Source of the DNA: Eubacterium sp.
Lineage (GTDB): Bacteria; Bacillota; Clostridia; Oscillospirales; Ruminococcaceae
Direction of reading: 5' to 3'
NCBI GenBank assembly: GCA_031271685.1
Contig: JAISVH010000119.1
Location: 362-64,361, forward strand
Length of the DNA stretch: 64,000 bases
This document shows positions 3,390-63,945 of this stretch, in pieces (the first letter of the stretch is position 1; each line of letters opens with the position of its first letter). The translations under genes and the position numbers were made by a program. Under the pieces are notes generated by a model, which did no database searches, had not been told where the DNA came from, and saw nothing but the letters and a program-made list of their open reading frames with translations.

Positions 3390-3560
3390 TATAGTAAATT
3401 AACTTGAAAACAAGCAACAATAATTTCCGCAAAACCGCATATATTAAAGCGTTCGTGTTCAAACGTCTGCGGCGGAGCCGCTTCCGTTTTTTTATCAAGC
3501 GTCAGCGGGGGGCTGAAAATCATACTGCGACTAGGAGACCGGGGATATTTACGCGGTTAT
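3390..3560. repeat. Mosaic repeat locus R1: L-arm fragment (3390-3457) plus BA element in reverse orientation (3458-3560)
   Basis: TATAGTAAATTAACTTGAAAAC... matches 62150. TTCAAACGTCTGCGGCGGAGCCGCTTCCG and ...CAAGCGTCAGCGG...GCGGTTAT match 61297-61430. Confidence 0.8.
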
Positions 3561-3607
3561 TATTCAGGAAAAATGATTTATGGCAAAATGGCGAAAGGTT
3601 TTAATTT

Positions 3608-5278
3608 ATGCTTACTGACATTCAAATCGCGCAGGGCGCTAAGATGAAAAAAATCGCTGAAATAGCCGGGAAATTGGGGATATCTGAAGAAGATTTATTT
3701 CCTTATGGACATTATAAGGCGAAAATATCCGAAAATGTTTTTAATAATATAAAAGATAAAAAAGACGGGAAGCTTATTTTAGTCACGGCAATCAACCCTA
3801 CGCCGGCCGGCGAGGGGAAAACAACAACCGCTATTGGCCTTGCCGAGGGGATGTCAAAAATCGGGAAAAAGGCGATTCTTGCGCTTCGCGAACCATCGCT
3901 CGGCCCGGTATTCGGCGTAAAGGGCGGGGCGGCCGGAGGAGGGTATTCTCAGGTAGTGCCCATGGAAGATATAAATTTGCATTTTACCGGAGATTTGCAC
4001 GCGGTTACCGGTGCCAACAACCTTTTGTGCGCCCTTTTGGACAACCATCTTCAGCAGGGAAACGCTTTGAATATAGATCCGCGAAACGTTCTGATCAAGC
4101 GATGTTTGGACATGAACGACCGCGCGCTAAGAAATATTGTTATAGGGCTGGGAGCAAAGGTAGACGGGATACCGCGTGAGGATCATTTTCAGATCACTGT
4201 GGCGAGCGAGGTTATGGCAATCCTTTGTCTTGCCGACAGTTTGAGCGATTTAAAAGCTCGGATTTCTAAAATTTTGGTGGCCTATACCTATGACAACAAA
4301 CCTGTGTTTGCGAAAGATTTAAACGCTGTGGGGGCAATGACCGCATTGCTAAAAGACGCGTTTTTGCCTAACTTAGTTCAAACGCTTGAAAATAACCCCG
4401 CTATAATCCACGGAGGGCCATTCGCCAACATTGCTCATGGCTGCAATTCGGTGAGGGCGACTAAGCTTGCGCTTAAGCTCGCTGATTACTGCATAACCGA
4501 AGCGGGCTTCGGCTCTGATTTGGGCGCTGAAAAATTTTTTGATATTAAATGCCGTATGGCCGGACTCACTCCAAGCTGTGCGGTGATAGTCGCGACTATA
4601 CGCGCTTTAAAGTATAACGGCGGGGCGCCGAAATCCGAATTGTCGAGTGAAAACACCGAAGCGCTCAAAAAAGGGATAGAGAATCTGGGCGTTCATGTTG
4701 AAAATCTGCGTAAATTTGGGGTTCCGGTAGTGGTGGCGGTAAATCGGTTTGTTTCTGACAGCGAAGGAGAGATAAAAATAATAAAAGACTATTGTGAAGA
4801 GTTAGATGTCGCCGTGGATTTTTCAGAGGTATTCGCGAAGGGCGGCGAAGGCGGCGAAGAACTTGCCAAAACGGTTTGCGATATTATTGATAACGGTAAA
4901 TGCGATTTTAAACCTTTGTATGATTTAAAGTCGTCAATAAAAGATAAACTGGATGCAATAGCGCGAAAAATCTATCGCGCGGACGGCGTGGCATATACGG
5001 CTACGGCGGAAAAATCGCTTAAGACTATCGAGGCTTTAGGATTGCCTGATTTAGCGGTGTGTGTTGCAAAAACTCAGTATTCGCTTTCTGATGATCCTTT
5101 AAAGTTGGGCGCGCCTAAAGGGTTTAACATAACGGTGCGAGATTTGAGAATTTCGGCGGGAGCAGGCTTTGTTGTGGCGCTGACAGGGGACATAATGACC
5201 TTGCCGGGTCTTCCGAAAGCTCCGGCCGCCGACAATATAGATATTGACGAAAACGGGAATATAATAGGATTATTTTAG
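3608..5278 (+). CDS. fhs: Formate-tetrahydrofolate ligase
   Basis: 556 aa. [11 protein letters not shown] nucleotide-binding motif and full-length resemblance to FTHFS. Confidence 0.95.
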
Positions 5279-5299
5279 CAAGTAGCAGGAGGTCGGTTT

Positions 5300-5746
5300 A
5301 TGACAGAGATTTCCCGAAGCGAGCAGGATACCGTTAATATCGGAAGGAGATTGGGAGAGAGGCTTAAGCCCGGCGATGCCGTGTTGTTTAACGGAGAGAT
5401 GGGAAACGGAAAGACCTATCTGACCAAAGGCATAGGCAAAGCGCTTTTAGTAGAGGACGAGATAGTCAGCCCCACATTTTCTCTTGTTCGAGAATATCAA
5501 GGCAAGCTCCCGATGTATCATTTTGACTTGTTCAGGATAAACGACTTTGACGCGCTGCTCGGCATAGGATTTTTTGATTATGTCGCCACGGCGCGAAACG
5601 GGGTTATGGTAATTGAGTGGAGCGAAAATATTAAAGGGCTTGAATTTGAGCTGTCTAAAGAAATGGCGCGTGTTTTTAAAATAAACATAAAGAAAATTTC
5701 GCAAAATGAAAGAGAAATTGAAATAGATGATAGTATTGGGGATTGA
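5300..5746 (+). CDS. tsaE: tRNA t6A37 biosynthesis ATPase TsaE (YjeE)
   Basis: 148 aa. Walker A GEMGNGKT. Overlaps and precedes tsaB. Confidence 0.85.
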   Translation: MTEISRSEQDTVNIGRRLGERLKPGDAVLFNGEMGNGKTYLTKGIGKALLVEDEIVSPTFSLVREYQGKLPMYHFDLFRINDFDALLGIGFFDYVATARNGVMVIEWSENIKGLEFELSKEMARVFKINIKKISQNEREIEIDDSIGD

Positions 5747-6398: not shown

Positions 6399-6405
6399 AC
6401 GAAAA

Positions 6406-6487
6406 AACAAAAATAATTTTTGCAAAACCGCAAACAAACTATCCGAGCGGCTTTGTCGCTTGATTCTAATAGTTTATTTGCGGATTT
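6406..6487. repeat. Repeat locus R2: G-family two-tier hairpin
   Basis: CCGCAAACAAACTAT-CCGAGCGGCTTTGTCGCT...-ATAGTTTATTTGCGG. The reverse complement of 35536-35596 aligns at about 75% by eye. Confidence 0.75.
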
Positions 6488-6508
6488 ATACAAGGAGAAA
6501 AAATTAAA

Positions 6509-6945: not shown

Positions 6946-7584
6946 ATGTTTATGGACAGCATGATAAAAATTTTAGACCATCCTTTGATACAGCATAAAA
7001 TATCGCTTCTTAGAGACAAAAATACCGATTGTAAGGATTTTAGGGAGCTTGTTAAGGAAATTTCAATGCTTATAGCGTATGAGGCGACTCGGGACCTTCC
7101 GTTGTCCGAGGTATGTATGGAAACGCCGGTCGCTATTGCCAAAACCAAAATAATCGCGGGGAGAAAAATGGTTTTTATACCGATACTCAGAGCGGGACTT
7201 GGCATGGTCGATGGAGCTGTCACATTGATCCCCGCCGCTAAAGTCGGGCATATAGGTCTTTGTCGCAGTGAAAATAAATCTAAGGTCACAGAATATTATT
7301 GTAAACTGCCGTACGATGTTATCGAACGAGACGTTATAGTAATGGATCTTATGCTTGCGACGGGGGTTTCGGCCATTACAGCCATATCAAAGGTCAAAGA
7401 AATCGGTGCCCGCTCAATAAAGTTTATGTGTGTAGTCGCTTGCCCTGAAGGGGCAAAGGCGCTGCGCGAAGCACACCCGGACGTTGCGGTTTTTTGCGGG
7501 GCCATGGATGACGGCCTTAACGACGAGCTTTATATTGTCCCCGGGATAGGAGACGGAGGCGACAGGATTTTCGGGACAAAGTAA
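6946..7584 (+). CDS. upp: Uracil phosphoribosyltransferase
   Basis: [16 protein letters not shown] and [14 protein letters not shown] motifs. The ATG at 6952 has better spacing to the AGGAGA RBS than 6946. Confidence 0.93.
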
Positions 7585-7599
7585 AAAATATGTAGAAAA

Positions 7600-7716
7600 G
7601 TAAGGACGCCTTCGGCGGTACGCGGCGCATGCCGCGTCTTAAAAACGCATTTAGCGTTTTTAACCTGACCAACTATAACCGCATTACTGGAAGCGGCTAC
7701 GCCGCAGATGTTTGAA
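7600..7716. repeat. Repeat locus R3: F left half (reverse, 7600-7677) plus short BA element (7674-7716)
   Basis: The reverse complement matches TATAG..GGTCA..TTAAAAACGCTAAATGCG...GACGCGGCATGCGCCGCG of 24701. Ends in CCGCAGATGTTTGAA. Confidence 0.85.
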
Positions 7717-8049
7717 AATAATTTTATCCAATATTTGGTAAAATTGCACAATAATTGAAAACATACTATTTATACCTGCGAAAAGCTCAGGGAATAATAT
7801 AGATTTTAAATTTTATGAAACTTTTTGATAATATGAGACGACTTCGAAATTGTGAGGCCAAGACATCGAATAGCGGCTATTATGCAGTTTATTTAAAATT
7901 AAAAAAATTTTATAAAAGCTTGAAACTTTTTTAAAAAGCAAAGTGACTGCGTAATTGTAAACGGCCAAACATGTTTGATAAATGACTGTTAGTAAAGAAT
8001 AAATATCATTTTCATTTTAACTACTGAAAATTTTAGTTAATAATGACTA

Positions 8050-8140: not shown

Positions 8141-9556
8141 ATGCTTAAGAAAATCTTAGCTATCGTTGCAGCAGGCGCTATCGCCGCTTCAGCAATGATA
8201 ACCAGCGTTTCGGCAGAAACACAGACAATTGAAAAAGTTCTTTACACCAATGACTTAAACGTTGGCACCGTAAAGTTCCAGGCTGACATCCCGTTAGGCA
8301 GTTATAAAGTTGACAATACCAGACAAGGTTATTTCCAAATCGTTCTTCCCGCAAACATTACACTTGATTATGATAACACCGGCAACACATACATCGACAC
8401 AACAACTTTTAGAATCCAGGCTAACTCTCTCGATATAAACGGCGTTAAGCCTTTCTCTGATGTAGTTTCTTCCCGCACTATCGACAGAGATTTTACTCTT
8501 AAGATCACCACCGCAATCCTTGACAACAAAAACACTAGCGGATCTAACATTGATACCCTTTCAGGAAGCATCCATGAAATGGATATCGCAGCGGCTACCG
8601 CTAACAGAATCACTATTAAGGGCACACTTATTAAGCCTGACTTAGGTTCGGCTAACAATTATGGCCGTCTGACCAGTGAAGAAGAAGAGCTTTTGGGCTA
8701 TGCCGACAAACTTCGTTTCAAAGATTTCGGCAATGGCTTTAGGGCTAACCTTTCCACCATGTGGTTTGTTAGAACCGACTCTAATGGGGTAGAAACATCT
8801 CTTTGGGGCAGCTCTGGCGGATCCAGCACCGGAGACACCACCAACGCTAACCCTTATTATTTCCAGAACAACCTTGAGCTTGACGTTAGAAACGTTTCCA
8901 CTTTTGACGGCCAAGACACAAGCAGAACCCAAGTATTAGAGTCTCAGGCTTATACCCTTCGTGAAAAAGAAGCCCTCAGACAAGAAGGCGCAACCGTTGA
9001 ACTGGTAGTTGATCTTAACGCTACCTCTCTCGGCTCACATTCGCTCAGCTATGTTGAATGCGAAATTTATGACGAAGTTGAAGGCGAAGAAGGAAGACCT
9101 TTCGCTCTCATGATGGACGGCGCACAGGCTAAGGGCGTTCTCAGAATGGATCAAATCTATAATGAGCTCTATGACATTTATAACACACAGTTCACATTCA
9201 CCGCAGAGGATGAAATGACCCATTCAAGAAACAACTTCATCAAGAGCGCTAAGCTTGTAATCAGCTATGATGATGGTCTTGCAGGAGTTTTAGACGGCGA
9301 AGACGCTCTTGATCCCGAAGAAGAACCGGAACTCGTAATCGAAGATGAAGAAGTAGTTGACGAAGAAGAATCCGTTGAAGACATCGTTGACGAAGAAGTA
9401 GTTGACGAAGAAGTAGTTGACGAAGAAACAGTTGACGAAGAAACAGTTGACGAAGGCGTTGAAGCAGAATCTAACCCTAGCACAGGCGTTGCTATCGCAG
9501 TTGTTCCCGCTCTTATCGCAGGCGCAGCAGTAGTAGCTTCCCGCAAAAGAAAGTAA
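8141..9556 (+). CDS. Secreted cell-surface protein with acidic VVDEE repeats and a C-terminal sortase-type anchor
   Basis: Signal peptide ending VSA-ET. Acidic repeat block. NPSTG, then 17 hydrophobic aa, then SRKRK at the C-terminus. Strong GGAGGA RBS. Confidence 0.75.
   Translation: MLKKILAIVAAGAIAASAMITSVSAETQTIEKVLYTNDLNVGTVKFQADIPLGSYKVDNTRQGYFQIVLPANITLDYDNTGNTYIDTTTFRIQANSLDINGVKPFSDVVSSRTIDRDFTLKITTAILDNKNTSGSNIDTLSGSIHEMDIAAATANRITIKGTLIKPDLGSANNYGRLTSEEEELLGYADKLRFKDFGNGFRANLSTMWFVRTDSNGVETSLWGSSGGSSTGDTTNANPYYFQNNLELDVRNVSTFDGQDTSRTQVLESQAYTLREKEALRQEGATVELVVDLNATSLGSHSLSYVECEIYDEVEGEEGRPFALMMDGAQAKGVLRMDQIYNELYDIYNTQFTFTAEDEMTHSRNNFIKSAKLVISYDDGLAGVLDGEDALDPEEEPELVIEDEEVVDEEESVEDIVDEEVVDEEVVDEETVDEETVDEGVEAESNPSTGVAIAVVPALIAGAAVVASRKRK
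9356..9457 (+). repeat. In-frame 15-bp tandem repeat (GTTGACGAAGAAGTA / ...AACA), about 6 units, encoding (V/T)VDEE
   Basis: Consecutive units at 9386, 9401, 9416 and 9431. Degenerate units at 9356 and 9446. Confidence 0.9.
9473..9553 (+). other. Tripartite cell-wall sorting signal (NPSTG / hydrophobic segment / SRKRK)
   Basis: Translation NPSTG-VAIAVVPALIAGAAVVA-SRKRK forms the last 27 aa of the 8141..9556 protein. Confidence 0.7.
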
Positions 9557-9612: not shown

Positions 9613-9723
9613 TATGTTTATTTGCAGGCGCGCGGCAGCTATTTATAAATTTATTGCTATAGTTGGTCGTTTAAAAACTCTGAATGAGTTTTTAAGACGC
9701 GGCGTTTGCCGAACTTACCTTGC

Positions 9724-10794: not shown

Positions 10795-10796
10795 AA

Positions 10797-12749: not shown

Positions 12750-12996
12750 AATAGTCAGTAACACACCTTAAGGTGTGCCGGCGGACTTTGCCAGCTATTT
12801 ATTGCCCATGCAACAAATACTCGGCAATTATTACGCGTCTTTTGCCGCCAAACCGCTTTAATTTTTCCTTAAATATCAATGGATATTCGCGTCAAAATTG
12901 CATTGTTTGACGACAAAAATCCTACGTTATATTTTGTCTGCTGTTTGTTGCAAGGGCAATAAAAACCCTTTATGGTTTTTAAATTGACTGACTATA
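12750..12996. repeat. Repeat locus R4: F right half interrupted by element H
   Basis: AATAGTCAGTAACACACCTTAAGG...GCCAGCTATT-TA-[H]-TA-AAAACCCTTTATGGTTTTTAAATTGACTGACTATA. Compare the intact copy at 31945-32021. Confidence 0.85.
12802..12959. mobile_element. MITE-like element H, copy 1 (158 bp, 16-bp TIR TTGCCCATGCAACAAA, flanked by TA/TA)
   Basis: TIRs and long imperfect hairpin arms. About 85% identical by eye to 55374..55527. Inserted in an F element whose paralogs show the empty site. Confidence 0.8.
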
Positions 12997-13074
12997 TCAA
13001 TAACATTACCTATCTTAGCGCTTTTTATAATATATCATAATATAATCAATTTGTCAAGGCCGGTGATGCCGCGG

Positions 13075-15750
13075 TTATATCGTTTTTTTACGTGCTGCCT
13101 TAAATAGCTTTACTATTCCGCTTAGCGCAGGAAGAACGAACGACAGTCCTAAAACTATTAATAGGTTATTGGCGTTTAGCGGCGTTGTGCTGAATATCTT
13201 GGACAGCAGCCCGGTGCAGGTTAGCAGAAAAACAATCGTTAACGAAAAAATAACCGCTAAAATAAGTTTAGGGTTTTTTAAATAAGCGGCGTTAAAAATT
13301 CCTCGTGTATCATCTTTACATTCGAAAACAAAGATAAGCTGTGAAAGGGCGAGAGTGCCGAACGCGGCGGTGCGGCCCGCCTCAAATCCCTGGTCGTTGA
13401 ATACCAACATAAACGATAAGAGGGTGGAAAAGCCTATTACAAGACCGCGGATTATTATTTTTGCCGCTATTCCGCCTGCAAAAACACTCTCGTTAGACTT
13501 TCGCGGCGGGCGTGACATAATGCCGTCGGTTGGTGGTTCCATACTTAGGGCTATCGCTGGGAGTCCGTCGGTCACCAGATTTATAAGCAGTATCTGTATA
13601 GGGATCAGCACCACCGGCATGCCCAAAGCCATCGAGACAAACATAGTGATTACCTCTCCGATATTGCAGGAAAGCATATAGCGGATAAATTTTCTTATAT
13701 TGTCATAAATGGTACGCCCCTGCTCTATAGTTGAAACCAGAGTGGCAAAATTGTCGTCTAGCAGGATTATCTGGGCTGCCTCTTTAGTAACGTCAGTGCC
13801 GGTTATTCCCATAGCGACCCCTATAGCGGCCTCTTTTACAGCGGGCGCGTCGTTTACACCGTCTCCAGTCATGGCTACCGTGGCTCCTTTTGCCTTTAGC
13901 GCCCTAACTATCCTAAGTTTGTCAGAAGGAGAGACGCGCGCGAATACCGAAATGGTTTTGAGCGCTTCACTTAGTTTGTTATCGCTCATACGCGACAGTT
14001 CATCGCCGGTTAGCGCCGTTGATTTTTGTTCGGTATGATCGTTTTCGTTAAAATTGGAATAATGCCTTACAAAGTGTGCTGCGCTGCCGGAGGCGTTAAC
14101 GGATGTATTAGGTTTGTTGTTTACTGAATTTATAATACCTGCCTGCCGCGCTATCTCGCAGGCGGTGACTTTATGGTCGCCAGTCAACATTATAACGCGA
14201 ACGCCGGCCTTTTTACATTTTATCACGGCCGACCTTGCTTCAGGTCGAATGGGATCGCTTAAACCAACGATCCCAATAAAAACATACTCTCCGCCGACTT
14301 TATAGGCAAAGCCCAATGTTCTTAAGGCTTTGGCAGCCATATCCTCTGCGGCGCCCAGTATTTCCATTCTTCTTTGTATATTTAAAACCGCAAGATTGTC
14401 ATTAATCATTACGCGCCCGCATTTTGTCATGATAACGTCTACCGCGCCTTTAAGGAACTCGGTGCTTACTCCGGCAGAGTTTTTAACCGTTACGCTCATG
14501 TAGCGGGCGCTGCTGTCGAACGGCACCTCAAAAGTGCGAACATATCCTTCGCTGTTTATGCCATACTTGTCTGCTGCAGACAGCAGAGCGGTTTCGGTAG
14601 GGTCGCCCGAATATGTATTGCCTGTTTTTCTGGTGGCGTTATTGCAAAGAGCGGCACAGAGAAAAAGCATCTGATCTTCTTTTGATTTCGTTTCGCTTTC
14701 GGGAGACTCGAACTTATTATTTATATAAATAGATGTCACGTTCATTTTATTTTGGGTTATGGTGCCTGTTTTGTCTGTGCAGATAACGTTAGTGCAGCCC
14801 AGGGTTTCTACGGAGTGAAGCTTGTTTACTATTGCGTTTTGCTTATAAATGCGCCGTACTGCCAAAGCAAGTGAAATGGTCACAGTGGCGGGCAATCCTT
14901 CAGGGATGGCGGCAACCGCAAGCGATATGCCGGTCAACAACATGTCAAATGGCGCGAAACCTCGCAGTATACCGGCGATGCTGACCAAGACACAGATGAT
15001 TATGCAGGATGCGCCGATAACCTTGCTTAGTCCCGCAAGACGGTTTTGCAGCGGTGTTTTTTCTTCTTTAATATTTGTTAAAAGGCCGGATACCAGACCC
15101 ATTTGGGTGGTCAGTCCCGTATTTATCACTTCTCCCAGTCCGTGCCCTTTTATGACTACCGTCCCCATATAACAAACTGTTTTTTGATTAAGTTCGTTAC
15201 TTTTGTTTTTACCCGCGTATTTATTTACCGGAATGCTTTCGCCGGTCAACATCGCTTCGTCGCATTCTAGCGCCATTGCCTCTGTGATACGGCAGTCGGC
15301 CGGAATTTTAGCCCCGGCTTTGAAGGCTATTACATCGCCGCGCACTAATTTTGAGGCGGGAATTGTTATTAACCTGCCGTCTCTGTATACGTCGGCGGAG
15401 GGGGCGGCGATTTTTTTAAGGGCCTCAAGAGTTTTTTCCGCTCTATATTCTTGTATAAACCCTAAAGCCGCGTTTAACACTACAATAATAATGATTATCA
15501 GCGCGTCAAGCCACTCGCCGAGTGCGGCGCTCACCGCTGTCGCAGCTAGGAGTATCATAACCATCGTATCCTTAAATTGTCCAGCAAAAACCGAAAGAGC
15601 TCCGCTTTTTTTATTTTCTGACAAGCGGTTCTCCCCGTCTTCGTTAAGTCGCTTTTCAGCTTCTCTTGTGGTTAGTCCCGTTTTTTTATTCAAGCTGATC
15701 CCCCCAATATTATATACTGTCTGATATATAAACCCTGCGGCCTTGTCCAA
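13075..15750 (-). CDS. P-type cation-transporting ATPase (P2, Ca2+-type)
   Basis: TGES, DKTGTITQN, MLTGDHKVTA, TGDGVNDAPA and PEGLPA motifs. About 10 predicted TM segments. Confidence 0.9.
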   Translation of the reverse strand: MDKAAGFIYQTVYNIGGISLNKKTGLTTREAEKRLNEDGENRLSENKKSGALSVFAGQFKDTMVMILLAATAVSAALGEWLDALIIIIIVVLNAALGFIQEYRAEKTLEALKKIAAPSADVYRDGRLITIPASKLVRGDVIAFKAGAKIPADCRITEAMALECDEAMLTGESIPVNKYAGKNKSNELNQKTVCYMGTVVIKGHGLGEVINTGLTTQMGLVSGLLTNIKEEKTPLQNRLAGLSKVIGASCIIICVLVSIAGILRGFAPFDMLLTGISLAVAAIPEGLPATVTISLALAVRRIYKQNAIVNKLHSVETLGCTNVICTDKTGTITQNKMNVTSIYINNKFESPESETKSKEDQMLFLCAALCNNATRKTGNTYSGDPTETALLSAADKYGINSEGYVRTFEVPFDSSARYMSVTVKNSAGVSTEFLKGAVDVIMTKCGRVMINDNLAVLNIQRRMEILGAAEDMAAKALRTLGFAYKVGGEYVFIGIVGLSDPIRPEARSAVIKCKKAGVRVIMLTGDHKVTACEIARQAGIINSVNNKPNTSVNASGSAAHFVRHYSNFNENDHTEQKSTALTGDELSRMSDNKLSEALKTISVFARVSPSDKLRIVRALKAKGATVAMTGDGVNDAPAVKEAAIGVAMGITGTDVTKEAAQIILLDDNFATLVSTIEQGRTIYDNIRKFIRYMLSCNIGEVITMFVSMALGMPVVLIPIQILLINLVTDGLPAIALSMEPPTDGIMSRPPRKSNESVFAGGIAAKIIIRGLVIGFSTLLSFMLVFNDQGFEAGRTAAFGTLALSQLIFVFECKDDTRGIFNAAYLKNPKLILAVIFSLTIVFLLTCTGLLSKIFSTTPLNANNLLIVLGLSFVLPALSGIVKLFKAARKKTI

Positions 15751-19337: not shown

Positions 19338-19483
19338 CTATAGGCTTATCAAAATTATAGTAAATTATAGCGAATTGCGTAAACATGGAAGCGAAATCCA
19401 TGTTTACGCCCGTCGCCGAAAGCGGCGCACCGCGGCAAAGCCACTGAGTTTATAGCATTTTGAAAACAGAGTAAAAAATAGCG
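19338..19483. repeat. Repeat locus R5: L fragment, C module, D fragment
   Basis: TATAGCGAATTGCGTAAACATGG...CCATGTTTACG...CGCCGAAAGCGGCG...TATAGCATTTTGAAAAC. Confidence 0.8.
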
Positions 19484-20915: not shown

Positions 20916-20969
20916 TATACCGCGCTTATGTCCCCCGCATATTAGGCGGTTTCGCCGCAGATGTTTGAA
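20916..20969 (+). repeat. Repeat locus R6: short BA element
   Basis: TATACCGCGCTTATGTCCCCCGCATATTAGGCGGTTTCGCCGCAGATGTTTGAA. Confidence 0.8.
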
Positions 20970-21105: not shown

Positions 21106-21202
21106 ATAGCCGCGTTTATGTCCCGCCTATTAGGCGGCGGGTGATTAATTTACTATAACGCTTGTTAAAACGCCGGAAGCGGATCTGCCGCAGATTTTTG
21201 AA
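21106..21202 (+). repeat. Repeat locus R7: full-length BA element (97 bp)
   Basis: ATAGCCGCGTTTATGTCCCGCCTATTAGGCGGCGGGTGATT...TATAACGCTTGTTAAAACGCCGGAAGCGGATCTGCCGCAGATTTTTGAA. Confidence 0.85.
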
Positions 21203-24686: not shown

Positions 24687-24700
24687 CAAAACGGTTCTGA

Positions 24701-24851
24701 TATAGCCGGTCATTTTAAAAACGCTAAATGCGGTTTTAAGACGCGGCATGCGCCGCGTGCCGACGAAGGCGGCCTTGTCTTGCTCATAATCAGTCGCGGG
24801 CTTTGCCCGCTGTTTAAAAACCCTTTAGGATTTTTAAATTAACTGACTATA
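24701..24851. mobile_element. MITE-like element F, full copy (151 bp), between the CARDB-repeat gene and the FtsX permease gene
   Basis: Ends TATAGCCGGTCATTTTAAAAACGCTAAATG / ...CCTTTAGGATTTTTAAATTAACTGACTATA form imperfect TIRs. About 80% identical by eye to 31871..32021. Confidence 0.85.
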
Positions 24852-24932
24852 TTTGGGCATGTTCGATAATAGGAAACTCATCGGCTGATATAATTAACCA
24901 TAAAAAACAACAAGTTAGCATGGTATGAAAAC

Positions 24933-26327: not shown

Positions 26328-26360
26328 GGCATGTTGCCCATCATCGAGAACATGCCCTAA
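26324..26360. terminator. 12-bp perfect inverted repeat between convergent genes (no U-run)
   Basis: TTAGGGCATGTT-n13-AACATGCCCTAA, overlapping the FtsX-permease stop codon. Confidence 0.4.
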
Positions 26361-40645: not shown

Positions 40646-40646
40646 T

Positions 40647-42826: not shown

Positions 42827-45800
42827 ATGAGAGGCGGGAGCTTTATGAAAACAGTTAAAAGTTCTGCTTGTTTAGCGTTTGCGGGCGTTTTTGCCTTTTT
42901 TCTTTTATTTTCAGGCTTCAAAACAGTTTCGGATAATAATAATAGTGAATCAGGAAACTCGGAACATTACAGCTCTTTTCGCGACATACCCGGTGTGACT
43001 GAAGAGGAAATCGCGGCAATAGATGTCCTTCGTGAAAAAAATGATTATTTTGTTTATGGCATGCCGTTAACTGTTGACTCGTTTTTAGTAGAAGGAGAGA
43101 TAAGGGGATATTCGGCCATTTTGTGCGATTGGTTAAGCAAACTGTTTGATATTCGATTCAAACCGGAGTATTACTCGTTCAGAGACTTGATCGACGGGCT
43201 TAAAAGCCATGAAATCGACTTTAGCGGCGAGTTGGCGATAAATGATGAGCGCCGGGAAATTTATTTTATGACCGATGCTATTGCGGAGCATTATTTGAAA
43301 TATTATCGGCTTGAAGACAGCGAGCCGCTCTCGGAAATTGCGGAAAAGCGCAAGCTTAGATATGGCTTTATTGAAGATGGGATCACACACGAAATTATTG
43401 GGATAGAACCCCCTGAAAATTCGTTTGAGACAGTATTTGTATCCGAGTTGGAACAGGTTCACAGTCTGCTTAAAAGCGGAGCTATTGACGCTTTTTTTAA
43501 CAGTGATAGCGCCGAGGCTTTTTTTGACCGCTATGACGACATTACTTCAGAGAGCTACTTGCCGCTGATTTATGTGTCTATCGGAATGGCGACCCAAAAT
43601 CCGGAGCTTGCCCCTGTGATCTCGGTGATTCAAAAAGCTATTAAAAACGGCGCGATGAAAAATTTTACAGAATTTTATAGAGAAGGGCGCGAAGAATATT
43701 TAAAGCACAAATTAAATCAGAAATTAACAAACGAAGAGCGCGAATATATAAAAGCCCATCCGGAGGTGAGCTTTGCGGCGCAATACGACAACTATCCGAT
43801 AAGCTTTTATAACGGATACGAAGACGAGTGGCAGGGAATTGCTTTTGACGTATTGGCTGAAGCGGAAAAGCTCACGGGATTAAAATTTAAGCTTATAAAA
43901 AATGAAAGAATCCATTGGCCGCAAATTCTAAAAATGCTTGAAAATGGCGAAATTCCCATGATATCTGATCTTATACGAACAAAAGATCGGGAGGGGCGGT
44001 TTCTTTGGCCTGAAAACGAGGTGGTGATTGGAAACTACTCGCTTATTTCAAAATCCGACTACCCAAACATAAGCATCAACGAAGTTTTAAAAGCAAGGGT
44101 GGGGGTAGCGCGGGGCACGGCTTATGAAAAGCTGTTTAAAACATGGTTCCCTAGCCACGTAAATACGATAGAATATGGAACCGTAAACGAAGCTTATGAG
44201 GCGCTTGAACGCGGCGAGACGGATATGGTTATGTCTACCCAACTTCAACTTTTAATGATAACTAATTATCTAGAAAAGGTAGGGTATAAATCAAATATAG
44301 TCTTTGATTATACCTATGGTTCCACCTTTGGGTTTAATAAGGATGAGACGGTTCTTTGCTCTATAATGGATAAGACGATGGAGCTTATTGACGTCGGGTT
44401 GATTTCAAGGCAGTGGACATCTAAGACTTATGACTACAGGGCAAAATTGCTTGAATCGCAATTTCCATGGCTGATGGGCACTATTATAATGTTTCTATTC
44501 GTAATTTTACTTCTTTTTATTATAAGCTTAAAAAAACGGCATGAAGGCCAGCGGCTTGAAAAGCTTGTGGTTGAACGAACCAACGAATTAGAGCTGCGGA
44601 CAGCAATGCTTTCAACTATGTTGAATTCTATTCCGGATTTGGTATTTTGTAAAGATTTAGACTTTAATTTTATGCTGTGCAACAAAAGCTTTGAGGATAA
44701 TTTCGGGGTTTCTGCAAAAGATATTGTCGGCAAAAACGATGCGGGCATTCCTTATTTGCCTGAAGAAATCTTAAAAAAATTTAAAGAAACGGAACGAGTG
44801 GTAATAAGAGAACGGCGTATGTTGGTGGCAGATGAAATCGTACCAAGAGCAAACGGAGAAACGCAGTATTTTGAGACTATAAAAGTTCCGATTATTAAAA
44901 ACGGCCGGTTAATAGGTCTTCTCGGCGTTGCCAGAGATATTTCGCAGCGTAAGGCTGCCGAAGAAGAAGCTCGAATAGCGTCTCTAGCCAAATCTGACTT
45001 TCTTGCCCATATGAGCCATGAAATAAGAACCCCCATGAACAGCATTATTGGATTTTCAGAGTTGGCCATGGACGACGACATATCAATTAAAACCAGGAAA
45101 TATCTTAATAAAATTTCGGATAATTCATATTGGCTTTTAAAAATTATAGACGATATTCTAGATATATCAAAAATCGAGTCCGGCAAAATGAAACTCGAAA
45201 ATGTGCCGTTTGGGCTGAATAATCTATTAAAAAAATGCCGCGCCGAAATTGCGCCTAAAGCTTTGGAAAAAGGGATAGCGCTTCGCTTTTATTCTGAGCC
45301 GGCCACGGGGAGGAAGCTTATTGGCGATCCCATGCGCCTTCGTCAAGCGCTTGTTAATATATTATCAAACGCGGTTAAATTCACAAAAACCGGCATGGTT
45401 AAGCTTTCGGTTTATATTACTGGAACGACAGAACACACTCACACAATTCGTTTTGAGATTCAAGACAGCGGAATAGGAATGACTAAGGAACAGATAGTCA
45501 AAATATTTGACCTATTTACACAAGTAGAAACCGGCACCACCCGTAAATATGGAGGGACTGGTTTGGGGCTGTCGATTACAAAAAGCATTATTGAGCTTAT
45601 GGGAGGCAGACTGGATGTTGAGAGCATACCGGCTGTAGGCAGCAAATTCAGTTTTGAGCTTACGTTTGATACAATTAATGTTCCTGAAGGACCGTCTGAT
45701 AAAAAAGAGGCCGACCGCTCGGATGAGATAGAAAGGCCGTTTTTCGACGGTGAAATCCTGTTGTGCGAGGACAATGCGATGAACCAACAGGTCATTTGTG

Positions 45801-46696
45801 AGCACTTAAGCAGGGTCGGGCTTAAAACAGTGGTGGCGCAAAACGGACGTGAAGGGGTTGATATTGTTTTGAGCCGCGCCAAAATAGGCAAGCCGTTTGA
45901 TCTTATTTTTATGGATATACATATGCCTGTTATGAACGGTATTGAGGCTTCTGAAAAAATTGTTAAGGCAAAAATAGAAACGCCGATAATAGCTATGACC
46001 GCCAATATAACTAAAGCTGATCGTGAGCTTTATAAAAAAAGCGGTATGCTTTATTGTGTGGGAAAACCTTTTACCTCTCAGGAATTGTGGCAGTGTTTGT
46101 TAAACCATCTGGTTCCTATAAGCTTTGAAAAAGACGAGAATAAACGATTTACAGGTATTGAAGATGAAAAACTTATGCTAAAGTTAAAGATAGGTTTTTA
46201 TAAAGAAAATAAGGATATATTCGATGAAATAAAAAAGGCTCTCGACACGGAAGATCGCAAAACGGCCCATAGATTGGCGCACAGTTTGAAAACCAATGCG
46301 GCGCTGATAGGGAAATTGGAGCTTCAAAAAGTATCGACCGAGCTTGAAACAACGCTTAAAAATGATGGAATTTCAGTTTCAGAAGAACAATTACGCTTGT
46401 TTAAATCTGAATTAAGCGATGTTTTAAAAGAATTTAAACCCATAGTTGACAAAAGCCGCGAAGAAGCTTTAAAAACAAAAGGCGAAACTTTAGAAAGGGA
46501 AATGATAATCCGGATTCTAAATGAGCTTGAGCCTTTGATAAAAAGCGGAAATCCCGAATGCCTTATGTTTATCGAAAGCATTCGAGCAATACCGGGTGGA
46601 GGGGAGCTTATATCACAAATGGAAGAATATGATTTTGAACTCGCGCTTAAGACGCTTTATAATCTGATGAAAGGCATGGAAAAATCTAATGCTTGA
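42827..46696 (+). CDS. BvgS-like hybrid sensor kinase (signal/TM, 2x family-3 solute-binding domain, TM, PAS, HisKA, HATPase, REC, HPt)
   Basis: Two PBPb-like regions (aa about 60-290 and about 300-540). TM at WLMGTIIMFLFVILLLFIISL. H-box SHEIRTPMNS, N-box SNAVKFT, G1 DSGIGM, G2 GGTGLGL, REC and HPt. Confidence 0.88.
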   Translation: MRGGSFMKTVKSSACLAFAGVFAFFLLFSGFKTVSDNNNSESGNSEHYSSFRDIPGVTEEEIAAIDVLREKNDYFVYGMPLTVDSFLVEGEIRGYSAILCDWLSKLFDIRFKPEYYSFRDLIDGLKSHEIDFSGELAINDERREIYFMTDAIAEHYLKYYRLEDSEPLSEIAEKRKLRYGFIEDGITHEIIGIEPPENSFETVFVSELEQVHSLLKSGAIDAFFNSDSAEAFFDRYDDITSESYLPLIYVSIGMATQNPELAPVISVIQKAIKNGAMKNFTEFYREGREEYLKHKLNQKLTNEEREYIKAHPEVSFAAQYDNYPISFYNGYEDEWQGIAFDVLAEAEKLTGLKFKLIKNERIHWPQILKMLENGEIPMISDLIRTKDREGRFLWPENEVVIGNYSLISKSDYPNISINEVLKARVGVARGTAYEKLFKTWFPSHVNTIEYGTVNEAYEALERGETDMVMSTQLQLLMITNYLEKVGYKSNIVFDYTYGSTFGFNKDETVLCSIMDKTMELIDVGLISRQWTSKTYDYRAKLLESQFPWLMGTIIMFLFVILLLFIISLKKRHEGQRLEKLVVERTNELELRTAMLSTMLNSIPDLVFCKDLDFNFMLCNKSFEDNFGVSAKDIVGKNDAGIPYLPEEILKKFKETERVVIRERRMLVADEIVPRANGETQYFETIKVPIIKNGRLIGLLGVARDISQRKAAEEEARIASLAKSDFLAHMSHEIRTPMNSIIGFSELAMDDDISIKTRKYLNKISDNSYWLLKIIDDILDISKIESGKMKLENVPFGLNNLLKKCRAEIAPKALEKGIALRFYSEPATGRKLIGDPMRLRQALVNILSNAVKFTKTGMVKLSVYITGTTEHTHTIRFEIQDSGIGMTKEQIVKIFDLFTQVETGTTRKYGGTGLGLSITKSIIELMGGRLDVESIPAVGSKFSFELTFDTINVPEGPSDKKEADRSDEIERPFFDGEILLCEDNAMNQQVICEHLSRVGLKTVVAQNGREGVDIVLSRAKIGKPFDLIFMDIHMPVMNGIEASEKIVKAKIETPIIAMTANITKADRELYKKSGMLYCVGKPFTSQELWQCLLNHLVPISFEKDENKRFTGIEDEKLMLKLKIGFYKENKDIFDEIKKALDTEDRKTAHRLAHSLKTNAALIGKLELQKVSTELETTLKNDGISVSEEQLRLFKSELSDVLKEFKPIVDKSREEALKTKGETLEREMIIRILNELEPLIKSGNPECLMFIESIRAIPGGGELISQMEEYDFELALKTLYNLMKGMEKSNA

Positions 46697-48354: not shown

Positions 48355-48446
48355 TATAGCAAATTGCGTAAACATTTTGAAATGAATTACATGTTTACGT
48401 TTGGCGCTGAAAGTGGCGCACTGCAGCTTTGCCGCAGATGGTTGAA
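48355..48446. repeat. Repeat locus R17: C module fused to the BA core, 26 nt upstream of the sugar-transferase start
   Basis: TATAGCAAATTGCGTAAACATTTTGAAATGAATTACATGTTTACG...GGCGCTGAAAGTGGCG...GCCGCAGATGGTTGAA. Confidence 0.8.
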
Positions 48447-50743: not shown

Positions 50744-50974
50744 TATAACCGCGTTTATGGTCCCTGTCTCTTAGACGGCGGGCTGTAATCGTTTAACTTT
50801 AAATTTTCTAAATTTAAAGTTAAACGAGGATTGCTCTGTTTGCGAACAGCGACCGCAACGCGCACGCTGCGGAACCCCTTTGGCTTAAAAAATACTTAGT
50901 ATTTTTTAAGCCAAAGGGTATACATGCTGACGCTGGTTAAAACACTGGAAGAGGCTGCTCCTCAGATGTTTGAA
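50744..50974 (+). repeat. Repeat locus R18: expanded BA element (231 bp) with an internal E hairpin, a GC-rich segment and a 43-bp perfect palindrome
   Basis: Starts TATAACCGCGTTTATGG. E at about 50788-50830. Palindrome CCCTTTGGCTTAAAAAATAC-TTA-GTATTTTTTAAGCCAAAGGG at 50876-50918. Ends ...CTGGAAGAGGCTGCTCCTCAGATGTTTGAA. Confidence 0.8.
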
Positions 50975-51022
50975 TTTATTTTATCATATAAGGTTTTAAA
51001 AATCAAGTTAAATTTTAAAAGT

Positions 51023-51167
51023 AATTTATATATAGAGTAAAAAAATGTGAAAAAAACTGTATCTTTTATACAAAAAAATAGCCAAACAAAAAGCAATTTA
51101 TATATAGAGTAAAAAATTGTGAAAAAAAACTGTACGTTTATACAAAAAAATTCGCCAACCAAAAGGT
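51023..51167. repeat. Two tandem copies of a 72-bp AT-rich unit
   Basis: AATTTATATATAGAGTAAAAAA(A/T)TGTGAAAAAAACTGTA...TATACAAAAAAAT starts at 51023 and again at 51095. Confidence 0.85.
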
Positions 51168-51195: not shown

Positions 51196-51271
51196 TGGAG
51201 CTTCTAATCAGATTCGAACTGATGACCTCGTCCTTACCAAGGACGCGCTCTGCCGACTGAGCTATAGAAGC
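51196..51271 (-). tRNA. tRNA-Thr (anticodon GGU), CCA encoded
   Basis: Manual cloverleaf: acceptor GCTTCTA/TAGAAGC, D arm GCTC/GAGC, anticodon arm CGTCC-TTGGTAA-GGACG, T arm ATCAG-TTCGAAT-CTGAT, then T-CCA. Confidence 0.9.
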
Positions 51272-55274: not shown

Positions 55275-55373
55275 TAATTGAAAATTATTCGTGTCTGTCA
55301 GTTTGCCGTGAAAACGGCAATTCAGGAATAAATTTAAATCATTTAAATTTGCCGCGAAGCGACACTAAATTTA

Positions 55374-55527
55374 TTGCCCCTGCACCAAACACTCGACAAT
55401 TATTACGTATCTTTTGTCGCTGAACCGCTTTAATTTTTTTAAATATAAATGGATGTTCGCGTCAAAATTGCATTGTTGACGATAAAATACTACGTGATAT
55501 TTTTTCTAATGTTTGTTGCAGGGGCAA
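55374..55527. mobile_element. MITE-like element H, copy 2 (154 bp), in the rpoB-rpoC spacer, flanked by TA/TA
   Basis: TTGCCCCTGCACCAAAC...GTTTGTTGCAGGGGCAA. TA at 55372-73 and at 55528-29. Confidence 0.8.
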
Positions 55528-55567
55528 TAATTATTAATTTGTCAATTGAATAAACGGGGGTATAGAT

Positions 55568-59413: not shown

Positions 59414-59420
59414 CAAAAAT

Positions 59421-59550
59421 TATAGCATTTTGAAAAACGAAAACGTTTTATCAAAATGCTATAGTTATAACCTCGTTTAATTTTAAATTTATTAAATTAA
59501 AGTTAAACGATTATAAAACACTGAAGGAGACTCCGCCGCAGATGTTTGAA
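59421..59550 (+). repeat. Repeat locus R20: D hairpin, E hairpin, BA right end, just after the rpoC stop
   Basis: TATAGCATTTTGAAAAACG-AAAA-CGTTTTATCAAAATGCTATA; CGTTTAATTTTAAATTTATTAAATTAAAGTTAAACG; ...CTGAAGGAGACTCCGCCGCAGATGTTTGAA. Confidence 0.85.
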
Positions 59551-61143: not shown

Positions 61144-61296
61144 TTATTTTTACCTTCCTGTTTTTTAGTTCAAACTTAAAAATATCAATGCTATTTTTAT
61201 ATATCAAATTGCGTTTTTAAGGGAATGAATCACACAAAAATGTTCGCCGTCCGACACCTAAACTAGGTGCCGGACGCATCGCACTTTGCGCGGGAT

Positions 61297-61472
61297 TCAA
61301 ACATCTGCGGCGCAGCCGCTTCCAGTGTTTTATAATTATTTAATTTTAAATTTAAACGACTATAACAAGCGTCAGCGGTGGATTGAAAATCACCCGCCGC
61401 CTAAGAGGCGGAGCACATAAAAGCGGTTATAGTATTTTGACTTATAGTCAATAAAAAGTCAAAATGCTATAA
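61297..61472 (-). repeat. Repeat locus R21: BA element (reverse) carrying a 30-bp TA-flanked insert, plus a D-like hairpin abutting a stop codon
   Basis: TTCAAACATCTGCGGCGCAGCCGCTTCCAGTGTTT-TA-[61333-61362]-TA-ACAAGCGTCAGCGG...GCGGTTATAGTATTTTGAC...GTCAAAATGCTATAA. Confidence 0.85.
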
Positions 61473-62030
61473 CTATCCGTTGTCAATAACATCAGGTTCG
61501 GTTATCTCAGAAACCGAAACATTTGAAAAGGTTAGTTCTAAATTATGATCAGGCAGAGAGGCGGATATTGGCAGTTTTGTTTTGGCATCCAACTCTAGTG
61601 TGTACGCCCCATAATCAGAAATCCCCGTAACTTTTATAATGTCGCCGGATCTTCTGGCTTCACTCCCCTCGCTGCTGATCGCGTTTTCAACAGTGTTTAT
61701 AACCTTGTCGGCAACGGTGGAAATTTCGGGCAAGCCGGTTATGTCAACGGTGATACCGTGAAATGTGGCCTTTGCCTTTCCATCTTTGAAAAAAAGGGAC
61801 ATACCTTGAAGTTCGTATGGCTCTGTTAATTCAACATTCCAACGACCGCCTGAAAACCGTTCGAAATTTCCGGCGGCCTTTAAATCTCCATAGACGAGCT
61901 CCGCAGAGAAAGAATAAGCTTTGTCAAGGTTTAAATTAGCCGAATTCATCACGATAGCGCCATCGCAGCCGCAAAAAACTAATATAGCCGCAAAACAAAG
62001 TATACTTTTTTTAATATTATTTGTCATCAA
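61473..62030 (-). CDS. Small lipoprotein, function unknown
   Basis: Signal peptide with lipobox VFCGC. 185 aa beta-rich sequence. Confidence 0.6.
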   Translation of the reverse strand: MMTNNIKKSILCFAAILVFCGCDGAIVMNSANLNLDKAYSFSAELVYGDLKAAGNFERFSGGRWNVELTEPYELQGMSLFFKDGKAKATFHGITVDITGLPEISTVADKVINTVENAISSEGSEARRSGDIIKVTGISDYGAYTLELDAKTKLPISASLPDHNLELTFSNVSVSEITEPDVIDNG

Positions 62031-62149: not shown

Positions 62150-62269
62150 TATAGTGAATTAACTTAAAAACAAAGCCGAAAAATTTTCGTAAAATCACTT
62201 ATATCCAAGCTTTTGCACCATTCCTTGGTTGTTTTCTAAAGTTAATTAACTATAACCGCGGCTTTTACG
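62150..62269. repeat. Repeat locus R22: full L hairpin (105 bp) plus BA left-end fragment
   Basis: TATAGTGAATTAACTTAAAAAC...GTTTTCTAAAGTTAATTAACTATA followed by TATAACCGCGGCTTTTACG. Confidence 0.8.
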
Positions 62270-62300
62270 TTATTTTTGGATGATTTTTTAAATTGGGTAG

Positions 62301-63821
62301 CTATTGCATAACAAACGGTAGATAATCGGCGATATCTCCGGGCAAAACACCGGCGAGAGCGGTGTTTTGCGAAATTTTTTCAGCCGCTAAGCCATGGAGA
62401 TACGTTCCTAGCAAGGCGGACTCGTACCCAGAGGTGCCTTGTGCGACAAGAGCCGCGATAATGCCGGTAAGAACATCTCCCGATCCGGCCTTGGCGAGAC
62501 CCGGGTTACCGGTTGGATTGACTCCTATCCGTCCATCGGGGGTAGCAATTACGGTATTCGGGCCTTTAAGAACGATAACGCTCAACCATTCCCGAGCGCA
62601 TTGACTCGCGTATTTTAAGCGATTTTGTTCAACCTCGTCAACCGAGACGCCGATCAGCCGCGCAAGTTCTCCCGGATGGGGAGTGAGAATTTTAAGCTTG
62701 TCATTGCCTTTTAAGATATTTATATTTCCCGCAATTGAATTTATACCGTCGGCGTCTAAAATAATAGGACATCTCGCGTTTTTAATGACGAATTCTGTAA
62801 GTTTTGCGGTTTCGGAGGTATTGCCTATACCCGGGCCTATGGACACTGCCGTCGCTTTTAAGAGTTCGCCGGCGATATTCTGTATATTTTCCGAGCTTAT
62901 ATATCCGTTATCGTCCGCAATAAGCGAACAAAAAACCGCCTCGGGGATGGCGGGTGCCGCGCTTCGGCAAACCTCGGTTGGCGAAGCGAGAGTTATATGT
63001 CCTACACCAGACCTAAGCGCGGCTTTAGCAGACAAAAGCGCCGCCCCTATATAACGCTCGCTACCGGCAATATTTAACAAGCGGCCATAATGCCCTTTGT
63101 GGGAATAAAGAGGGCGTTTTGGAATAAAACGCAGTATCTCGCTTTCGGTTATGGTGGCGGTAAACGAAGAATAGCAGTCTTCTGGAATTCCAATATCCAA
63201 AAGGATAAGGCTTCCGCAGCGAATGGCGGCCGGAAGGCTAAAATATCCGGTTTTGGCGGCTCCCGGCGCAAGTGTGAAATCCGCTCTGAATGAACCGTCG
63301 CTCACAGTCCCTTCGGTTGCATCGACACCGCTAGGGATGTCAACCGAGAACTTTAGCGCACGGCAGTTATGGTCGATATATTTAAACAGCGTGGAAAGTT
63401 TCGGGTCCAGTTCTCCGTGAAAGCCGGATCCGTATACGCAGTCGATGATCACATCGCAGTTTAACAGCGCCTTGCTGACAGCGTCCTCGCGGTGAGAATA
63501 AGAGGCGATATTCAAGTTTTCATGATATTTTGCGTATATTGTACGAGCGGTTTCTGATATCGGGAGATCACCGGTGAAAATGCATAGAGTTTCGGCCCCG
63601 TTTGCCATAAGCAAGTTTGAAATAACAATGCCGTCTCCGCCGTTATTTCCACGTCCGCAGAGCACAACAAATGTTTTGTCTTTGACGCCGCCAACAATTT
63701 CTCCGATTTTTTTATAACATTCAACTCCCGAGTTTTCCATAAGGGTGGATAACGCTATCCCTTTTGCCACCGCTTTCATTTCCGCCGTTTTCATCTGACC
63801 GGCTGTTACGATATACTTCAT
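62301..63821 (-). CDS. nnr: Bifunctional NAD(P)H-hydrate repair enzyme (epimerase/ADP-dependent dehydratase)
   Basis: YjeF-N motif GRGNNGGDG and C-terminal GSGDVLTG. Start moved to MKYIVTAG (63821) after AGAAAGG. The listed 63872 start translates a repeat module. Confidence 0.9.
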   Translation of the reverse strand: MKYIVTAGQMKTAEMKAVAKGIALSTLMENSGVECYKKIGEIVGGVKDKTFVVLCGRGNNGGDGIVISNLLMANGAETLCIFTGDLPISETARTIYAKYHENLNIASYSHREDAVSKALLNCDVIIDCVYGSGFHGELDPKLSTLFKYIDHNCRALKFSVDIPSGVDATEGTVSDGSFRADFTLAPGAAKTGYFSLPAAIRCGSLILLDIGIPEDCYSSFTATITESEILRFIPKRPLYSHKGHYGRLLNIAGSERYIGAALLSAKAALRSGVGHITLASPTEVCRSAAPAIPEAVFCSLIADDNGYISSENIQNIAGELLKATAVSIGPGIGNTSETAKLTEFVIKNARCPIILDADGINSIAGNINILKGNDKLKILTPHPGELARLIGVSVDEVEQNRLKYASQCAREWLSVIVLKGPNTVIATPDGRIGVNPTGNPGLAKAGSGDVLTGIIAALVAQGTSGYESALLGTYLHGLAAEKISQNTALAGVLPGDIADYLPFVMQ

Positions 63822-63836
63822 TTTATGACCTTTCTG

Positions 63837-63945
63837 TATAGCAAATTGCGTAAACATGTAAGTGAATTCCATGCTTACGATCGCCGCTGAAAGCGGCAGT
63901 GTTTATAGCGTTTTGAAAAACGCAAACGTTTTATCAACATTATCT
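63837..63945. repeat. Repeat locus R23: C module plus D hairpin, 16 nt upstream of the nnr start
   Basis: TATAGCAAATTGCGTAAACATGTAAGTGAATTCCATGCTTACG-ATCGCCGCTGAAAGCGGCAG-TGTTTATAGCGTTTTGAAAAACGCAAACGTTTTATC. Confidence 0.85.

Follow-up and report, generated by a model that had tools for sequence, protein, structure and literature searches.

We identified a genuine, dense and lineage-specific network of small non-autonomous repeat elements in the intergenic spacers of a 64-kb stretch of the Eubacterium sp. contig JAISVH010000119.1 (positions 362 to 64,361 of the forward strand), which is referred to here as the window and numbered from its first letter. The window has a GC content of 42% and an intergenic share of 10.8%. 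With a probability of roughly 0.65, we read the network as several lineage-specific non-autonomous mobile families, belonging to two mechanistic classes, that have piled on each other within the spacers. The repeat families are new; the kind of repeat is a well-known one. As the best match to the Der protein of the window outside this genome, from an Oscillospiraceae or Ruminiclostridium metagenome-assembled genome (MAG), was only 80% identical, the source organism is an uncultured, gut-type Clostridia (Oscillospiraceae-type) lineage without a close sequenced relative.

A preliminary description of this DNA had reported recurring intergenic hairpin modules, and we kept its family labels A, B, C, D, E, F, G and L, with BA denoting a B start followed by an A end. 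Each family was sought with its own profile hidden Markov model (nhmmer), with E<=0.01 taken as significant, and all of these families were recovered. The A profile gave 13 matches (E 1e-13 to 1e-2), the profile of the B start (B1) 8, C 4 and G 2, which confirmed the 13 BA, 4 C and 2 G copies counted before. For D, 3 matches and a half copy (19449-19466) were found where 4 copies had been claimed, and for E, 2 matches and a partial copy (61325-61359) instead of 3 copies. The two full copies of F were borne out, at 154 nt rather than 151 bp, and they were accompanied by three partial copies (7588-7677, 9658-9711 and 12960-12997) rather than two. The L profile recovered one full copy, one half and a number of end fragments. 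All profile matches at this threshold were intergenic.

The BA 3′ motif CCGCAGATGTTTGAA, with up to 3 mismatches allowed, was matched 18 times against 2.1 expected, a count reached in none of 100 shuffles; 13 of the 18 matches were true BA copies. Self-BLASTN, a check that had been proposed and that we ran on the window, returned 52 repeat pairs, all of them within or between spacers, barring two paralogous gene sets (32050-34727 and 41147/45008) and a small number of hairpins that are self-complementary, and a more sensitive comparison of the spacers only returned 145 pairs. A module was present in 21 of the 28 spacers longer than 60 nt, close to the 22 of about 30 first counted, while two more such spacers (6399-6508 and 35524-35636) had a further hairpin repeat in common. 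Together the modules total 2.75 kb, or 40% of the intergenic bases, and they are indeed GC-rich within AT-rich spacers (40.6% GC versus 29.9% in module-free spacer DNA). Module length ranged from 37 to 231 nt, with 2-13 copies per family in 64 kb, and the ORFs within modules were short and showed no conservation among copies. No gene, tRNA, rRNA, CRISPR array or Rfam family explained them, as had been stated before.

The BA family is asymmetric. Read so that it finishes in TTTGAA, a full BA element consists of TATAAC(C)GCGTTTATGTCC, a hairpin CCGCC-TMTTA-GGCGG, GTGATTTTCAATCCACCGCTGACGCTTGTTAAAACACTGGAA, a second hairpin GCGGC-TCC-GCCGC and AGATGTTTGAA; the distance to the 5′ end is about 13-15 nt for the first hairpin, and that to the 3′ end is 11 nt for the second. 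Its start is conserved as TATAAC(C) and its end as CAGATGTTTGAA, and these do not form inverted repeats with one another. The 3′ boundary is sharp, with conservation in 13/13 copies up to TTTGAA and in about 5/13 thereafter; beyond it lies unrelated sequence, in which TA follows TTTGAA in just 1 of the 13 copies, and BA therefore duplicates no TA. On the 5′ flank, ATA was found in 12/12 copies and TATA in 10/12, this TATA being either the target or a part of the element. In 5 of the 12 copies it doubles as the end of an adjacent module: that of L (62254), of F (7677), of a D-type module (61428) and, twice, of an L end fragment (21157 and 29123).

At least 5 different deletion or insertion derivatives of BA, from 37 to 231 nt in length, retain both the TATAAC(C) start and the conserved 3′ end. 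They include short forms of 37 to 62 nt (at 39529, 7674, 20916 and 37006), forms in which TATAAC is followed by GCTTG (at 21152 and 29118), and forms with E, L or other inserts (at 61296, 59468, 27103 and 50744). Such retention is expected if propagation requires both of the unlike ends, with the interior as cargo. From its anatomy, BA thus matches an IS200/IS605-type non-autonomous element rather than a TA-duplicating MITE (a miniature transposable element with inverted repeats).

On the other hand, D, F and L are imperfect palindromes that end exactly in TATAG/CTATA with unrelated sequence outside, and the ends of E are of the same type but less exact (TATAG/TATAA). Inverted ends of 12-25 nt were found in D, E, F, L and G, and none in BA or C; those of G (TTTATTGCCC...) are unrelated to the TATA type. 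In D, F and L, TA is always present at both junctions, and a filled and an empty site could be compared for E alone. Within the BA copy at 61296-61434, E forms a 30-nt insert together with a duplicated TA: this filled copy reads GCTTGT-TA-TAGTCG...AATAATTA-TA-AAAC, while the BA copies at 21188, 29154 and 50960, with an empty GTTAAAAC site, read GCTTGTTAAAAC. The same BA TA also starts an L end in the copy at 27103. Since one TA was used by both E and L, it is a hot spot. The symmetric modules therefore fit the TA-targeting MITEs that the preliminary description had proposed, as far as their ends and one TA duplication can tell, and it is for BA that the proposal was not supported, given its uninverted ends and the near absence of TA at its 3′ junction. 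The modules also have the short length (under about 400 nt), the several copies and the lack of coding capacity of MITEs. Likewise, the statement that almost all modules end in G(C/T)TATA held for D, F and L and roughly for E, but for neither BA nor C.

The C family, like BA, has no inverted ends; it runs from TATAGC... through two hairpins to ...CAAAGCC. All 4 C copies lie on the plus strand, though the genes flanking them face either way; taken together, the asymmetric elements BA and C are found 12 times on the plus and 5 times on the minus strand, which is not significant.

Comparison with related genomes indicates that at least some of these modules are later additions to their spacers. 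In GCA_009777445.1, the syntenic relative whose Der is 80% identical, the order PBP-PGI-L32-Wzy-DUF512-Der-PlsY-GpsA is conserved. The der-plsY spacer, 148 nt with a BA composite in the window, measures 4 nt there (3-4 nt or a 4-nt overlap across the closest relatives); the plsY-gpsA spacer is 109 nt with a C copy against 47 nt; and Wzy and DUF512, separated here by a 191-nt spacer with an F copy, overlap in the relative. Judged from this synteny, the repeats at the three junctions are derived insertions. No module profile matched in about 78 kb from six loci of four related genomes (77-80% Der identity), and these 78 kb were almost devoid of intergenic repeats of their own.

Database searches gave no further members. 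In Rfam 15, the tRNA-Thr alone reached a gathering score, and no module match reached it in E-value mode. BLASTN of the modules against PLSDB plasmids and GenBank phages gave marginal AT-rich matches only (E>=0.02). There were no matches in JGI metagenomes to a 23-base BA pattern or a 20-base C pattern, and a pattern scan of IMG/VR gave 5 chance matches with no module similarity past the search motif. With the 16-mer GCCGCAGATGTTTGAA, too short a query, the matches listed among species-representative genomes were single chance ones without a module. Finally, ORFs derived from the repeats had no match in the protein collection, whether sought by a synthetic query in six frames or by aligned F translations.

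We propose that the mosaic was built by two kinds of insertion. The first class would comprise the symmetric D, E, F and L, which would insert at TA and duplicate it, like Correia-type MITEs, while G would be a separate inverted-repeat family with other ends. The second class would comprise the asymmetric BA and probably C, seated 3′ of ATA/TATA with no duplication, like the PATEs of the IS200/IS605 superfamily. Each first-class insertion, with its TAG...CTA ends, would make two TATA sites; BA-type elements would insert 3′ of TATA, and TA-targeting elements into any TA. With these new TATA sites and the internal TA hot spot of BA, later insertions would land at or inside older elements, which would produce the shared-TATA junctions, the nesting and the concatenation in variable order. 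Composites bounded by BA 5′ and 3′ ends may then have been copied as units, as perhaps in 21145-21202 and 29111-29168, which are 90% identical over 58 nt. Nested insertion of this sort explains the mosaic better than a fixed modular grammar would.

IS605-superfamily elements have no inverted ends, carry subterminal hairpins and insert 3′ of a 4-5 nt site without duplication, and the superfamily includes protein-less PATEs and REPs (PMC4810608). BA resembles PATEs in having a hairpin near each end, uninverted ends, no duplication and a motif on the 5′ flank only (PMC4810608). It differs from them in that its hairpins are unlike in sequence, which is atypical, in showing no strand bias, and in having no known autonomous relative with such ends; neither a Y1 transposase nor TnpB was detected among the scanned proteins of the window.

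Several observations weigh against the two-class reading. No transposase or recombinase of any kind was found among the scanned proteins of the 64 kb, so that mobility, mode of transposition and enzyme class are inferred from the anatomy of the elements only. There is just one clean filled-versus-empty site. The left and right BA hairpins both have GC-only 5-bp stems, yet they are unlike in sequence, while IS608-type elements have near-identical hairpins at both ends. BA has no significant strand bias (8 copies on the plus and 5 on the minus strand). In addition, no near-identical pair of copies was found that would point to recent movement, and databases hold no closely related strain (the next-best Der being 80% identical) for a presence/absence comparison.

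Among the alternatives, it is conceivable but unlikely that a single HUH/Y1 enzyme, TnpA- or RAYT-like, moves everything by cutting 3′ of TATA beside hairpins. The right cleavage site would then be TATA in a symmetric module and TGAA in BA, and the network would represent a REPIN/RAYT-like system in a Firmicute. The 5′ junction TATA(A/G)(C/T), common to all TATA-type modules and BA, would be well accounted for, as would the sharing of one TATA, not TATATA, between neighbours and the fact that every module is a hairpin. The case of E in BA fits equally well if an element with a TA at its own end was inserted 3′ of a TA, and protein-less PATEs and REPs do belong to the IS605 superfamily (PMC4810608). 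However, neither a Y1 nor a RAYT gene was seen in the window, F and L have long inverted ends (20-25 nt), a typical trait of DDE-type MITEs that is superfluous for Y1, and the strand bias is lacking. The modules, with their TATA-type ends, also lack the conserved 5′ tetranucleotide of GTAG type that REP elements, as palindromic units of 20-40 nt, normally bear.

We also find it rather improbable that every family, and so BA too, consists of TA-duplicating MITEs moved by an IS630/Tc1-mariner-like DDE transposase, the solution preferred in the preliminary description. BA would then have to be a half element or a chimera that lost its right end. Its 5′ end does have the TATA(A/G)C form of the symmetric modules, its A part is itself an imperfect palindrome (AAACAC.../...GATGTTT, paired in the fold), and one TA duplication is documented. 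It is difficult, though, to reconcile a lost right end with 13 copies that share a sharp 3′ end and are followed by TA once, or with the independent deletion derivatives (at least 5) that keep this end and the TATAAC start, which argue that both unlike ends are functional. Moreover, no DDE transposase is present in the window.

Very little speaks for host-functional structured elements (acting to stabilise mRNA, as terminators, as small RNAs or as sites for protein binding) that were spread by recombination and not by transposition, in line with the functional interpretation of REP/BIME. Modules do lie in the spacers of putative operons such as der-plsY-gpsA and rpoB-rpoC and adjoin stop codons, and fold z-scores against shuffled sequences were strong (-4 to -10) for D, E, F and L as well as for the C copy at 19366, one of three that were tested, while those of the other two C copies and of the BA copies were +0.2 to -2.3. 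But strong folding is inherent to palindromic elements, and compensatory change was no more frequent than in shuffled controls in the stems of either A (13 copies) or C (4 copies), where mismatches rather piled up. Modules face either way with respect to genes, many copies are truncated or nested, the relatives, whose operon spacers measure 3-47 nt, lack the families, and no Rfam family matches them.

A role of the modules as terminators or promoters was rejected, since scans placed the good promoters and terminators of the window outside them; the B hairpin followed by TGATT(A/T)(A/T)T had a terminator-like score in two copies. The frame ...TLEEAAPQMFE, which most copies of the A part keep open, was rejected as a peptide gene as well: it is not coding, because the third codon positions of the 12-nt conserved end CAGATGTTTGAA are near-invariant (11-13 of 13 copies). 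On inspection, we also rejected a reading of TATAAC...GTTATA as integron attC sites, as the core is unlike RYYYAAC and there are no cassette ORFs between the sites. Copies are 75-95% identical in self-BLASTN and in the spacer comparison, and together with the absence of compensatory change this indicates that they are probably old, drifting and decaying.

An assembly or binning artefact of a MAG, for which one might point to the uncultured source and to the window being part of a 73.9-kb contig, is hardly credible, since an independently assembled Logan contig of SRR14710911 is 100% identical to the window over 24800-31908 (7,109 nt, four repeat-bearing spacers), which excludes an assembly artefact, and the copies differ by 5-25% and hence are not collapsed duplicates. 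The two ends of this Logan contig fall inside the full F copies at 24700 and 31870. A second contig of SRR14710911 has the parC protein in common with the window and, as placed from its coordinate offset only, would end near position 3415 inside the L copy at 3390. Ends within F and L copies are expected of multi-copy repeats, and they suggest that more and closer copies exist elsewhere in the genome.

Among known systems, L is closest to the Correia elements (CREE/NEMIS) of Neisseria. Its end TATAGTGAATTAAC agrees with the Correia 14-mer TATAGTGGATTAAC in 13/14 positions, and L ends match it at 12-13/14 in 5 places of the window against 0.53 expected (PMC5039591). Both L and Correia ends run on as AAAAAC after a 2-nt offset. 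Correia elements are likewise about 100-160 nt long and intergenic, with inverted repeats TATAG...CTATA and TA at the junction (PMC5039591). L differs in its host, which belongs to Clostridia and not to Betaproteobacteria, and shows no similarity to them past the first ~20 nt. One full copy of L is present in the window, whereas Neisseria genomes carry many Correia copies. To our knowledge, the transposase family behind Correia-type elements has been an open question since the 1980s, and we know of none for L either. As the L end is so close to the Correia end, an autonomous element might be present in the complete genome or in SRR14710911. It is a long shot that one enzyme recognising a hairpin beside TATA drives the whole network and that the genome holds its autonomous element; if true, this would reveal the transposase family that moves Correia-type elements, or a REPIN/RAYT-like domesticated system in Firmicutes.

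The organisation of the network resembles BIME of E. coli and BOX of S. pneumoniae, which are mosaic intergenic hairpin repeats (PMC3184786). Here, too, spacers, often those of operons, combine short hairpins whose order and orientation vary, and the likeness to BIME and BOX mosaics drawn earlier can be extended to the NIMEs. The NIMEs of Neisseria are similarly mosaic intergenic repeats. With none of these is there sequence similarity, and the junction is a shared TATA instead of a REP unit, a dRS3 repeat or a boxA/boxC frame. As for RUP, ERIC and other TA-flanked MITEs, these have inverted ends and a stem-loop fold, are intergenic, and went through past bursts followed by dormancy (PMC3184786). 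Like RUP and ERIC, the symmetric modules are intergenic, end in inverted repeats with a TA at either junction, fold into a long stem-loop and probably went dormant after past bursts; they are unrelated in sequence, and several families with one end motif stand alongside an asymmetric family.

The network represents a private burst in one uncultured lineage that now occupies 40% of the spacer DNA, while the sampled relatives stayed clean, and that widened tight operon junctions, as in der-plsY, from 3-4 nt to 148 nt. A TA-duplicating inverted-repeat class and a duplication-free hairpin class may be using the same TATA junction, so that each insertion would make the next target. In practical terms, the repeats break short-read assemblies, as the Logan contigs that stop inside F, and probably L, copies illustrate, and they mislead annotation, where small ORFs that are not genuine and an erroneous N-terminal extension result from them. 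Small ORFs at 3404-3604, 7530-7751 and 24465-24749 overlap modules, as had been noticed. So do the first 17 codons of ORF 62301-63872, which lie over module C; a start with a ribosome-binding site is found at 63821. Current concepts remain unchanged, and the value of the network would grow if a partner enzyme were found.

The individual BA copies illustrate the range of forms. In the reference copy (61296-61434, minus strand), 5′ TATAACCGC is followed by a hairpin CCGCC-TCTTA-GGCGG, a middle part, a hairpin GCGGC-TGC-GCCGC and AGATGTTTGAA at the 3′ end; the partial E copy (61325-61359) is nested in this BA. A full BA of 107 nt without an insert (3458-3564, minus) adjoins the L left half at 3390-3456 (plus; a profile match). 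The short forms comprise a 43-nt BA (7674-7716, plus) with an internal deletion and both ends kept, which shares its TATA with the F half at 7588-7677; one of about 54 nt (20916-20969, plus), in which the B hairpin is joined straight to the A end; one of 62 nt (37006-37067, minus) with the A end fused to the B hairpin; and a minimal one of 37 nt (39529-39565, plus), which is TATAAC plus A. The BA at 40646-40724 (minus) lacks the B start, and its A end contacts the stop codon of gene 39626-40645.

Composite copies were also found. The one at 21106-21202 (plus) consists of a B start, an L end fragment (21145-21157) and a short BA (TATAAC+GCTTGTTAAAAC...TTTTTGAA), and the same composite recurs at 29080-29168 (plus) in the der-plsY spacer. 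At 27103-27243 (minus), a BA carries an L end fragment (27148-27183) inserted at the TA site used by E in the reference copy. The longest BA (50744-50974, plus, 231 nt) holds a nested E (50788-50828), a GC-rich segment and a palindrome (50876-50918), and a chimera at 48355-48446 (plus) has C joined to the A end in place of its own.

The other modules are distributed as follows. C is found with two hairpins and unlike ends at 19366-19442, followed by the D left half at 19449-19466 (plus, together 19366-19466), and alone at 28300-28376 (plus) in the plsY-gpsA spacer. The three concatenations described earlier were all recovered, with slightly moved borders: L-BA (3390-3564); C-D (63837-63947, plus), made of C at 63837-63900, the one under the spurious N-terminal extension, and D at 63903-63947; and D-E-BA (59420-59550, plus), made of D at 59420-59464, TATAACC, E at 59472-59511 and an A end. 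A D-type palindrome at 61428-61472 (plus; TATAGTATTTTGAC...GTCAAAATGCTATA) has its TATA in common with the 5′ end of the reference BA and lies 1 nt from a stop codon. The contact of modules with stop codons was observed at all three positions named before (32021/32022, 40645/40646 and 61471-61473).

The full 154-nt F at 24700-24853 (plus) has inverted ends TATAGCCGGTCA.../...TGACTGACTATA and five internal hairpins, and in the other full F (31870-32023, plus) the terminal TATA adjoins the stop codon of gene 32022-33356. F left halves at 7588-7677 (minus) and 9658-9711 (plus) were recovered by both nhmmer and self-BLASTN, and an F right end fragment (12960-12997, plus) comes straight after G. 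The full L copy (62150-62254, inverted ends TATAGTGAATTAAC.../...GTTAATTAACTATA) shares its TATA with a B start fragment, the pair spanning 62150-62265 (plus). The two G copies, at 12797-12963 (plus, 166 nt, inverted ends TTTATTGCCCNTGCAACAAA, not TATA-bounded) and at 55369-55531 (plus, in the rpoB-rpoC spacer), are 87% identical.

The further hairpin repeat, which falls outside the families first described, lies at 6430-6490 (plus) and pairs in the spacer comparison with 35532-35591 (minus), at 75% identity over 61 nt. It forms a long hairpin AACGAAACTAA...AGCGGCAAAGCCGCT...TTAGTTTCGTT, and the neighbouring segment 6399-6432 resembles the interior of L.

Protein family scans found an ordinary Clostridia housekeeping set in the window, including a ParE/ParC-like topoisomerase, formate-tetrahydrofolate ligase, RpoB/RpoC and Der-PlsY-GpsA; also encoded are AgrB, proteins of chemotaxis and of two-component systems, and a protein with a Ruminococcus-type NPXTG anchor. 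The latter, encoded by gene 8141-9556 and otherwise without a family match, has near its C-terminus an acidic tandem repeat of 15 nt (5 residues, VVDEE-like; 9316-9467). Two tandem Wzy_C (O-antigen ligase-like) paralogues, 76% identical over 1.3 kb, were identified at 32022-34727 (minus), where the syntenic relative has one. The adjacent hybrid histidine-kinase genes 40742-42823 and 42827-46696 carry segments (41147-42241 and 45008-46099) that are 66-73% identical, indicating a paralogous duplication. Just downstream of the tRNA-Thr gene (51196-51271, minus), and adjoining the nested BA element, is an AT-rich direct tandem duplication of about 72 nt with 87-90% identity (51017-51165).

Directly after gpsA, the contig of the repeat-free relative carries a fragment of a PDDEXK_2 (Rpn-type putative transposase) gene (13239-13475), and the window has at this position a BA+L spacer and a different gene. 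Finally, an apparent 355-nt spacer of the window contains the gene for ribosomal protein L32 (34801-34983, minus; 60 residues, MAVPKRKVSKARRDKRR...), which accounts for one of the module-free "spacers".

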